This document shows, piece after piece, positions 47,464 to 47,628 of a DNA stretch of 64,000 bases. Origin of the DNA: a virus; the IMG/VR virus record IMGVR_UViG_3300043399_000587, positions 32,001-96,000 of that record. The stretch is one strand, 5' to 3'. The stretch's first letter is position 1. Every line of letters begins with the position of its first letter. The notes beneath the pieces were generated by a model. It was given only the letters and a program-made list of their open reading frames with translations, searched no databases and was not told the origin of the DNA. Both the position numbers and the translations under genes were made by a program.

Positions 47464-47510
47464 TGAAACATTTTTAACATCGTGAAAAAATGAGTTATGT
47501 ATTAAATAGC

Positions 47511-47606
47511 TTAAGAACACCCTTAGGACCCGTTTGAGTACGGAGGTGTAGCCGAGAACCCGGGCTTGAACAACAAATTCGCTACTTGTTGTTCTTAACA
47601 GGGTTC
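47511..47606 (+). ncRNA. Unidentified structured RNA with pseudoknot
   Basis: GC-rich intergenic segment after late TAAATA; several stems plus 6-bp loop-tail pairing GAACCC/GGGTTC. Confidence 0.55.
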
Positions 47607-47628
47607 ACTTTACATTTATCTTCGTGTC

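Follow-up and report, generated by a model that had tools for sequence, protein, structure and literature searches.

The 64,000 nucleotides (nt) of DNA analysed here, referred to below as the window, are positions 32,001 to 96,000 of the virus record IMGVR_UViG_3300043399_000587 in IMG/VR. The source record has a length of 124.8 kb with an estimated completeness of 36% and encodes a T4-type DNA polymerase (phrog_262), by which Rak2/Atu_ph07-like jumbo phages are its nearest cultured relatives (43-48% identity). Positions 47464-47628 of the window form a spacer of 165 nt between a kinase-like gene and a gene for an SNase-like nuclease, both on the plus strand, and this spacer contains an element which a previous reading of the window, made by a model from the letters alone (the sequence-only reading), had described as a pseudoknotted RNA. 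The element is one member of an undescribed family of pseudoknotted RNAs of about 100 nt in giant T4-like phages. Here we present the fold and the strand of this RNA, its complementarity to 23S ribosomal RNA (rRNA), its low copy number and its position at the ends of transcription units, together with a proposal for what it might do to the ribosomes of the host.

Eighty loci were fetched by means of the nuclease protein, and BLAST located the element in L003 and L004 alone, with 84% identity. Two invariant motifs were derived from the versions in the window and in the loci L003, L084 and L085, before any comparison with rRNA was made, and the resulting pattern, GTAGCGAAT-N25-55-GGTCCTAAGG, was run on the contigs of IMG/VR. 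At least 120 viral contigs matched this loop pattern, with 121 distinct versions among the matches listed; counts given below for 121 copies, or for parts of them, refer to these listed matches. The covariance model R1, built from 26 of the listed versions, recovers one copy in 99 of 100 loci found by the pattern and also finds copies in 25 of the 80 sources fetched by the nuclease gene alone, in which the element lies immediately upstream or immediately downstream of the nuclease gene or some 2 kb farther along. Two weak model matches on the minus strand, at 9047-9146 of the window and at 22924-23072 of its own record, are not family members.

Among the 99 model hits (96 distinct), 90.8% of the cells form standard pairs versus 66.8% in shuffles, and in each of the 22 pairs both partners have changed. 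With a covariation score of 0.507 versus 0.155, the alignment was matched by none of 500 shuffles, and slid controls gave at most 0.083; this alignment is fitted to R1 and therefore leans toward the structure. For the pseudoknot, at least three Watson-Crick pairs are possible in 84 of the 86 distinct combinations of loop and tail, and at least four in 54 of the 86, compared with 275 of 1720 combinations with shuffled tails. The helix itself is found in no fewer than 12 different sequences, including UGCU/AGCA, GGU/ACC, ACU/AGU, GCCAC/GUGGC, CCCCCA/UGGGGG, UCUCCCU/AGGGAGA, CCUACA/UGUAGG and GAACCC/GGGUUC. The check proposed with the sequence-only reading, a search for homologues with covariation in the stems, has thus yielded numerous homologues in which both the stems and the pseudoknot covary.

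Read along the gene strand, members of the family consist of GAAC (after the stop codon), the P3 5' strand ACACC, loop A (CCUUAGGACC), an optional hairpin P3i, the P3 3' strand, P2 with a loop that is typically GGCUGCU, P1 with loop B (AUUCGCUAC), the motif AAAGUG and a tail AGC(A) that forms the pseudoknot with the P2 loop. Rfam 15 has no match in the window, and with E values up to 10 only models of small nucleolar RNAs and small RNAs appear, far below their gathering thresholds; there is likewise no Rfam match on the element in 14 loci with typical copies, and literature searches turned up no paper on such an RNA. The Rfam scan had been suggested along with the statement that no known family can be assigned, and it agrees with that statement. 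The element is not a tRNA, as had also been said: ARAGORN finds no tRNA or transfer-messenger RNA (tmRNA) gene in the window.

The strand of the RNA follows from the orientation of the flanking genes and from the counts of non-canonical pairs. In 97 of the 121 copies both flanking open reading frames (ORFs) run opposite to the orientation GTAGCGAAT..GGTCCTAAGG, i.e. they lie on the strand that reads CCUUAGGACC...AUUCGCUAC; the ORF on the side of the stop codon does so in 114 of 116 copies, and the neighbour on the pseudoknot side is found on the other strand in 13 of the 121. Read in the gene-strand orientation the pairs include 101 G.U versus 43 A.C, with the excess concentrated in P1 and P2, and the pseudoknot of 8 base pairs (bp) in L085, GAAGCCGG/CCGGUUUC, requires a G.U pair that is possible on the gene strand only. 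The RNA is accordingly placed on the gene strand, the plus strand of the window, in line with the sequence-only reading. A minus-strand RNA that would mimic rRNA, which was also considered, is ruled out by the gene orientation and by the same pair counts.

Table 1. Features of the RNA element of the window and of the adjoining genes (window coordinates)
Feature	Position	Strand	Evidence
Upstream gene, kinase-like, with MRATEFITE leader	46345..47463	+	phrog_15752, E 2.2e-10; ORF list
Whole RNA element, covariance-model match	47508..47615	+	R1, 49.7 bits, E 9e-12, model positions 1-110; whole-record search gives the same place
5' boundary UAAGAAC, conserved	47512..47518	+	sequence; flanks of 120 copies; stop-codon positions
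P3 5' strand ACACC	47517..47521	+	pairs with 47545-49; in the family 5 of 5 pairs with double changes, 80.6% of cells pair
Loop A CCUUAGGACC	47521..47530	+	complementary to E. coli 23S rRNA 1921-1930
P3i hairpin CCGU/ACGG (47530-33/47540-43), loop UUGAGU	47530..47543	+	in the family 4 of 4 pairs with double changes
P3 3' strand GGUGU	47545..47549	+	sequence; family covariation
P2 hairpin AGCC/GGCU (47550-53/47563-66), loop GAGAACCCG	47550..47566	+	in the family 98.9% of cells pair
Pseudoknot 5' strand GAACCC, within P2 loop	47556..47561	+	pairs with 47601-06; covaries in the family
P1 hairpin, 9 bp, GAACAACAA (47568-76)/TTGTTGTTC (47586-94), loop ATTCGCTAC (47577-85)	47568..47594	+	family helices 6-8
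Pseudoknot 3' strand GGGUUC	47601..47606	+	sequence; family loop/tail pairing
Homing endonuclease remnant, last 14 codons and stop (HEDKCKVNPVKNNK*)	47582..47626	-	tblastn of L003 endonuclease: residues 190-203, 78.6% identity, E 0.037
Downstream gene, SNase-like nuclease, signal-peptide-like N-terminus	47629..48063	+	PF00565, E 1.3e-11; phrog_452, E 1.3e-21

The hairpins that had been proposed from the letters alone, ACACC/GGTGT with an enclosed CCGT/ACGG, AGCC/GGCT and a 9-bp hairpin, lie where they had been placed and match the family consensus, and the proposed 6-bp pairing GAACCC/GGGTTC is the pseudoknot of the family. Two further pairings offered at the same time, an alternative closing helix TTAAGAACA/TGTTCTTAA and GCTAC/GTAGC, find no counterpart in the aligned relatives examined. 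The UAA of the conserved 5' boundary is the stop codon of the upstream gene in many relatives, whereas in the window that gene stops earlier, at 47461-63. P3i is optional in the family, which includes short forms without it, GGUGUAGCCGAG at 47544-47556 is by our reading the family's P3/P2 junction, and for the middle pair of P2 the model-hit alignment has 48 sequences with CG and 45 with GC. The P1 loop at 47577-85 is loop B, in which UUCGCUAC is complementary to 23S 1930-1937. On its own the window sequence folds modestly at best (plus strand, minimum-free-energy z -1.81 with 11 of 200 shuffles folding as well; minus strand, z -2.42), and it is the relatives that support the structure. The enrichment in G+C reported earlier is present to a modest extent only (0.44 versus about 0.30-0.38 nearby). 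The element is not an intrinsic terminator, since no U-tract comes directly after P1, the sequence there being UUAACAGGG in the window and UAAAGUGAGC in the family; a canonical terminator, where present (L208, L140), comes after the element.

The two loops are complementary to adjacent stretches of 23S rRNA, as verified on rrlH of E. coli. GGTCCTAAGG occurs once in this gene, at locus positions 2180-2189 (23S 1921-1930), as does GTAGCGAA, at locus positions 2189-2196 (23S 1930-1937), and the two sites abut. In the window copy, segments of 10 nt and 8 nt are the complements of 23S 1921-1937, which comprises the 3' strand of helix 69 together with the strand next to it. Other members of the family carry complements in other arrangements. 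In subfamily B, which was found by R1 and not by the loop pattern, P3 of L060 encloses the loop CUACCUUAGGAC and CGUUAUAGUUAC, complementary to 1922-1933 and 1910-1921, so that 12 + 12 nt face 1910-1933 (24 target bases, one C missing); L072 and L074 have 12 + 6 nt complementary to 23S. Subfamily C has CCUUAGGGCC with an A-to-G change by which a wobble with U1923 is kept, and its member L041 has UCGCUA in the 5' domain and AGUUACG (complementary to 1909-1915) in the P1 loop. All 17 distinct copies found through the nuclease gene contain CCUUAGG. A sense-strand partner was not seen in the five phage records searched, of which four contain the 10-mer once, inside the element, and one (G005) contains it twice.

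The family occurs in low copy number and in a recurrent position. Five records of 260-353 kb have 2, 1, 1, 0 and 1 model matches, i.e. zero to two copies per genome, which rules out a repeat element, and the record of the window has one good R1 match. G001 has a second copy (L237), in which CCUUAGGACC has been lost while P2, UCGCUAC and the pseudoknot are retained. An upstream ORF of at least 70 amino acids (aa) could be assigned for 104 of the 121 copies, and for 97 of these 104 ORFs the stop codon lies 6-20 nt ahead of loop A or is the UAG that loop A contains. The register of the stop codon is not fixed (offsets -20 to +3), and this variability rules out a recoding signal at a fixed distance from the stop codon. 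In most relatives no more than 20 nt separate the upstream stop codon from the start of the element, or the UAG in loop A serves as the stop codon, and the element therefore appears to be the 3' end of the transcript of the upstream gene.

What follows the element differs between loci. One downstream type has a TTGACA-N17-TATAAT promoter, a small ORF and an ORF of roughly 875 aa, the latter being a DNA polymerase in L084 and L087; others have a CATAAATA motif fused to the pseudoknot end, the canonical terminator mentioned above, or a convergent gene. The near-consensus promoter starts 8 nt after the element in many loci, among them L198, L209, L216 and L218, and the small ORF behind it is conserved (M..KTFNGDQKIKLTQ..). 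The element is therefore the last feature of a transcription unit, and it is neither a terminator nor a leader of the gene that follows. In the window both flanking genes lie on the strand of the element. The suggestion that it might be a switch for the nuclease gene is not supported, because the neighbours differ between phages and the element is often followed by a promoter of the next gene or by an intrinsic terminator; a riboswitch or leader of the nuclease gene is thereby ruled out.

Among cultured phages a copy was found in Pseudomonas phage PA5oct (MK797984) at 115461-115571 on the plus strand (30 bits, E 4e-6), starting two bases after the stop codon of EST35_0189. Table 1 of the PA5oct omics paper lists four non-coding RNAs, none of them at 115.4 kb (Lood et al. 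2020, PMC7318152). A blastn search of a typical copy against 50,697 phage records returned nothing relevant, and R1 found no copy in Phosso, Atu_ph07, Vibrio 2.275.O, XaC1 and RaK2 (0 of 5, with one match at E 0.43). A scan of bacterial genomes gave eight pattern matches, all on contigs of metagenome-assembled genomes; of these, R1 recognises only L240, L244 and L245 clearly, and L242 weakly. One element-bearing phage contig, L170, encodes a tmRNA at 1884-2294 (plus strand; 118.5 bits with the Betaproteobacteria-type model, 130.3 bits with the permuted tmRNA model), a possible hint to the host.

The window copy has a history of its own that involves a homing endonuclease. Its DNA is 84% identical to L003 2223-2339, where the element overlaps the 3' end of an intact gene for 203 aa on the minus strand, and the window retains the end of such a gene (Table 1), the rest of which is absent. 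Neither this tail nor the complementarity of the loops to 23S rRNA had been noticed in the sequence-only reading. The product of the gene in L003 matches phrog_314 ('homing endonuclease', E 3.9e-8), with no Pfam match at E up to 5 and no PDB match below E 0.2, and gives E 0.091 in BLASTP against T4 SegB. As phrog_314 is the sole match and neither a profile nor a structure points to the GIY-YIG (Seg-like) type, we label the product homing-endonuclease-like. Endonuclease relatives with 62% identity occur in L084-L090, followed by the same downstream sequence with compensatory changes. In this lineage the last codons on the opposite strand (..K-C-K-M-N-P-V..) overlap the pseudoknot 3' strand, so that GGGUUC in the window doubles as codons N-P of the endonuclease tail; the pseudoknot is GAACCC/GGGUUC in the window, L003 and L084 and GAAGCCGG/CCGGUUUC in L085. 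The window copy is thus a variant of the endonuclease-linked lineage with a rewritten pseudoknot, from which the endonuclease gene has since been lost. At one time an endonuclease gene on the opposite strand adjoined the element, with its last codons over the pseudoknot 3' strand; the P2 loop changed along with it, which preserved the pseudoknot; and the gene was subsequently deleted up to the start codon of the nuclease gene. Homology to L003 ends at that start codon, and the deletion seems to end exactly there.

An endonuclease of another family, HNH+NUMOD3, is found on the same side of the element in L202. That the element as such is debris of a homing endonuclease gene, as the initial BLAST matches to L003 and L004 alone might have indicated, is ruled out by its presence on at least 120 contigs, most of them without an endonuclease. 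A second endonuclease-like gene (MIIYLYKKTHNITGLKYLGQ...), with 46.6% identity to the L003 endonuclease over 88 residues, is located outside the window at about 22450-23000 (minus strand) of the same record and in locus L232 at 900-1470 (minus strand). Ahead of this gene are a ribosome-binding site, GAGGAG, and a GC-rich hairpin (GTAGTTCGCGGGATTGCAGTCCCCAACTAC) of a type that also precedes the endonuclease gene of L003; the hairpin may serve in translational control. At 2181-2240 (plus strand) of L003 a further gene of the MRATEF type is reduced to its start (MRATEFLSELFQPGKNTLP*), which extends into the element; this suggests that insertion of the element or of the endonuclease gene cut a capsid-tagged gene there.

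The genes around the element in the window belong to a cluster of capsid-tagged enzymes, and the SNase-like gene comes next to the element, as expected from the earlier placement of the element in an effector cluster just upstream of a nuclease gene. Between 44778 and 48655 neighbouring genes share leaders that end in Glu (MRALEFITE, MRATEFITE, MKANDFVNE) and resemble capsid-targeting sequences of T4; one of the products is ADP-ribosyltransferase-like and one kinase-like. No Shine-Dalgarno sequence was seen ahead of the nuclease ATG (47629) in window positions 47600-47640, and in L005, L024 and L002 this ATG is preceded by GGAG or AAGGA (GGAG in L005 and L024). L002, which has the closest relative of the window nuclease, is without any spacer at this point. 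The late promoter TAAATA assigned to the element in the sequence-only reading was not borne out. The window has TTAAATA there, the motif ahead of its ORFs being ATAAATA (10 of 21 plus-strand copies within 60 nt upstream of a listed ORF start); no conserved promoter precedes the element in the flanks of 120 of the listed copies, and the closeness of most relatives to an upstream stop codon speaks against a dedicated one.

The reading that we favour, held tentatively and as somewhat short of probable, is that of a trans-acting RNA which pairs its loops with 23S rRNA 1910-1937 of the host, with free or immature 50S subunits as the likeliest targets. P2, the pseudoknot between the P2 loop and the 3' tail, P1 and P3 would form a constant scaffold on which the near-invariant CCUUAGGACC and UUCGCUAC are displayed as single strands. 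The RNA would be co-transcribed with the upstream gene, at the very end of the transcription unit, and would act in trans on large-subunit rRNA. In 50S subunits that are free or still being assembled the interface region would be exposed, and the pairing would hold or block the subunit, with subunit joining, assembly or tethering as possible points of effect. More doubtful is the formulation that a dedicated RNA of giant phages grips the large subunit or its precursor by pairing with the strand of helices 69-70, with the loops as guides and the constant pseudoknot as a scaffold or handle that a protein partner might use. The strand of helices 69-70 forms the central bridge to the small subunit.

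Several observations weigh against pairing with rRNA. UUCGCUAC is present in just six of the 17 distinct copies found through the nuclease gene, compared with CCUUAGG in all of them, and the near-invariance of the loops in the set of 121 copies is partly built in by the search pattern. Matches of 8 nt to 23S are common by chance at many other places, so the argument rests on the adjacency of the targets and on repeated independent arrangements aimed at the same 30 bases. In many copies the loop targets overlap at 1929-1931 and both loops cannot pair fully at once. In L116, L118, L181, L214 and L038 the P3 3' strand is CCUAAGG, which can pair internally with CCUUAGG and would make this motif helical instead of exposed in those copies. 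The P3i loop of the window is not complementary to helix 69. The target is folded in mature ribosomes, where 1921-1924 make up half of the helix 69 stem and the remainder is packed at the subunit interface, and pairing would need rRNA that is free, unfolded or nascent. One gene copy would also face tens of thousands of ribosomes, and transcription of the element, its pairing with rRNA and any effect on the ribosome are predictions from sequence.

The main rival, which we consider unlikely, is a structural or protein-binding RNA, a module that protects or processes the 3' end of the transcript of the upstream gene, whose loops contact a phage or host protein or make tertiary contacts in the RNA itself and have inherited their complementarity from an inverted scrap of an rRNA gene. 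The position of the element at the ends of transcription units, right after stop codons and before promoters or terminators, is what such a module would show, as are the internal pairing of CCUUAGG in some copies, the greater constancy of P2 and the pseudoknot compared with loop B, and the L237 paralogue with its retained scaffold and missing CCUUAGGACC. It accounts poorly for the three subfamilies, in which segments complementary to 23S sit in different loops and arrangements and are nevertheless all aimed at 23S 1906-1937; this looks like selection for complementarity and not like one inherited scrap. The stems of hairpins that resemble helix 69 covary while their loop keeps GUUAC, and a mere stabiliser needs neither 18-24 fixed bases nor about one copy per genome.

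The remaining rivals are lesser ones. An action in cis on translation, in which the loops hold the large subunit or the ribosome after termination for reinitiation, would be a 23S counterpart of the termination upstream ribosome-binding site (TURBS) of caliciviruses and seems improbable. It would suit the 97 of 104 upstream ORFs that stop just before loop A or at its UAG, and the next start codon is often within a few tens of nt; the variable stop register (-20 to +3), the many loci with an intervening promoter, a convergent neighbour or a terminator, and the distance of 42 nt between the upstream stop codon and the window copy do not fit, nor would any given gene profit from an element that occurs about once per genome and between gene pairs that vary. 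Still less probable is that the long transcript is cut at the end of the unit, either by the element acting as a self-cleaving ribozyme or by a host RNase for which it is the site: the compact pseudoknotted fold with few invariant unpaired bases and the intergenic, phage-borne location without a U-tract terminator of its own are compatible with it, whereas no Rfam ribozyme family matches at E up to 10 and the invariant bases form two contiguous blocks antisense to rRNA in place of a scattered catalytic core. We give the least credence to the idea that the element matters as DNA, either as a landing or recognition site of homing endonucleases or, in the window, as debris of a lost cassette, for although two unrelated endonuclease families lie on the same side of it (phrog_314 in L003/L004 and L084-L090, HNH+NUMOD3 in L202) and the window retains a 14-codon tail, both neighbours are on the gene strand in 97 of the 121 copies, the 13 opposite-strand ORFs on the pseudoknot side are mostly ordinary convergent genes, the compensatory changes and the one-strand excess of G.U show selection on a folded single strand, and the window element is intact with the endonuclease gene gone.

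Should the loops indeed pair with 23S rRNA, the family would represent a new viral way of handling the translation machinery of the host, with an RNA directed to a region that is among the most conserved in the ribosome. At this region of 23S rRNA the subunits join and release and recycling factors act. As a natural RNA that targets bacterial 23S rRNA through antisense pairing it would be without known precedent, and it would provide phages with an RNA-based means to park, mark or disable ribosomes. Independently of its function, a large RNA family has been missing from the RNA catalogues. The idea can be tested at the bench, as the cultured phage PA5oct has a member. The endonuclease-linked copies, including the one in the window, constitute a natural compensatory-mutation experiment, and their compensatory changes show that selection acts on the pseudoknot.

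Known systems share single traits with the element. TURBS of caliciviruses is likewise an RNA segment next to a stop codon with complementarity to rRNA; it differs in being directed to small-subunit rRNA and in lying upstream of a stop-start overlap, whereas the element is complementary to large-subunit rRNA, has a variable register and is often separated from the next gene by a promoter. The exon-binding and intron-binding sites of group II introns (EBS1/EBS2-IBS1/IBS2) are two loops that read adjacent stretches of one strand, as in the element, and they have the same 'crossed' order, the 5' loop reading the upstream stretch. The element is intergenic, has about 100 nt, no other intron domain and no reverse transcriptase, and the likeness is one of geometry only. 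CopA/CopT of plasmid R1 and RNA I/RNA II of ColE1 resemble the element in presenting short exact complements in hairpin loops on a stable scaffold. Loop display on a stable scaffold is the geometry of fast kissing contacts with a folded target. CopA and RNA I are transcribed from the opposite strand of the DNA that encodes their target, the mRNA or primer of their own replicon; the sole perfect target found for the phage element is host 23S rRNA, which is encoded elsewhere, its scaffold is pseudoknotted and its pairing is predicted.

Phage T4 has a small stable RNA gene, rnaD (species 2 RNA), beside the GIY-YIG endonuclease gene segB and the capsid internal-protein gene ipI. In the T4 genome (L252, AF158101) rnaD occupies 2054-2172 and rnaC 1909-2047, both on the minus strand. 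The 5' hairpin of rnaD, ACCGG-GUCGCUA-CCGGU, shares with the element the heptamer UCGCUAC, located in the loop except for the final C in the stem, and this heptamer is the complement of 23S 1930-1936. The hairpin does not vary among the T-even homologues aligned (8 of 8); its UCGCUACC is complementary to 23S 1929-1936. Unlike the element, rnaD has neither CCUUAGGACC nor the scaffold of P2 and pseudoknot, and with filters off R1 gives a local match of 28 nt only (7.7 bits, E 0.53, model positions 61-89); no similarity over the whole RNA was found between rnaD and the family. A second complement, AAGGAAUU to 1937-1944, is not conserved, and an RNA as long as rnaD should by chance share about five 8-mer matches with 23S. 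T4 species 1 RNA (rnaC) contains GAGUAGCGU twice, the sense counterpart of the rnaD loop, a match that may be due to chance or may hint at an interaction of the two RNAs with each other or with rRNA. The T4 record describes species 2 RNA as a 'small, stable RNA' with its function unstated, and we know of no function for it. The shared UCGCUAC gives a weak lead on this RNA and does not amount to a relationship; T4 species 2 RNA might be a distant functional cousin of the family described here.

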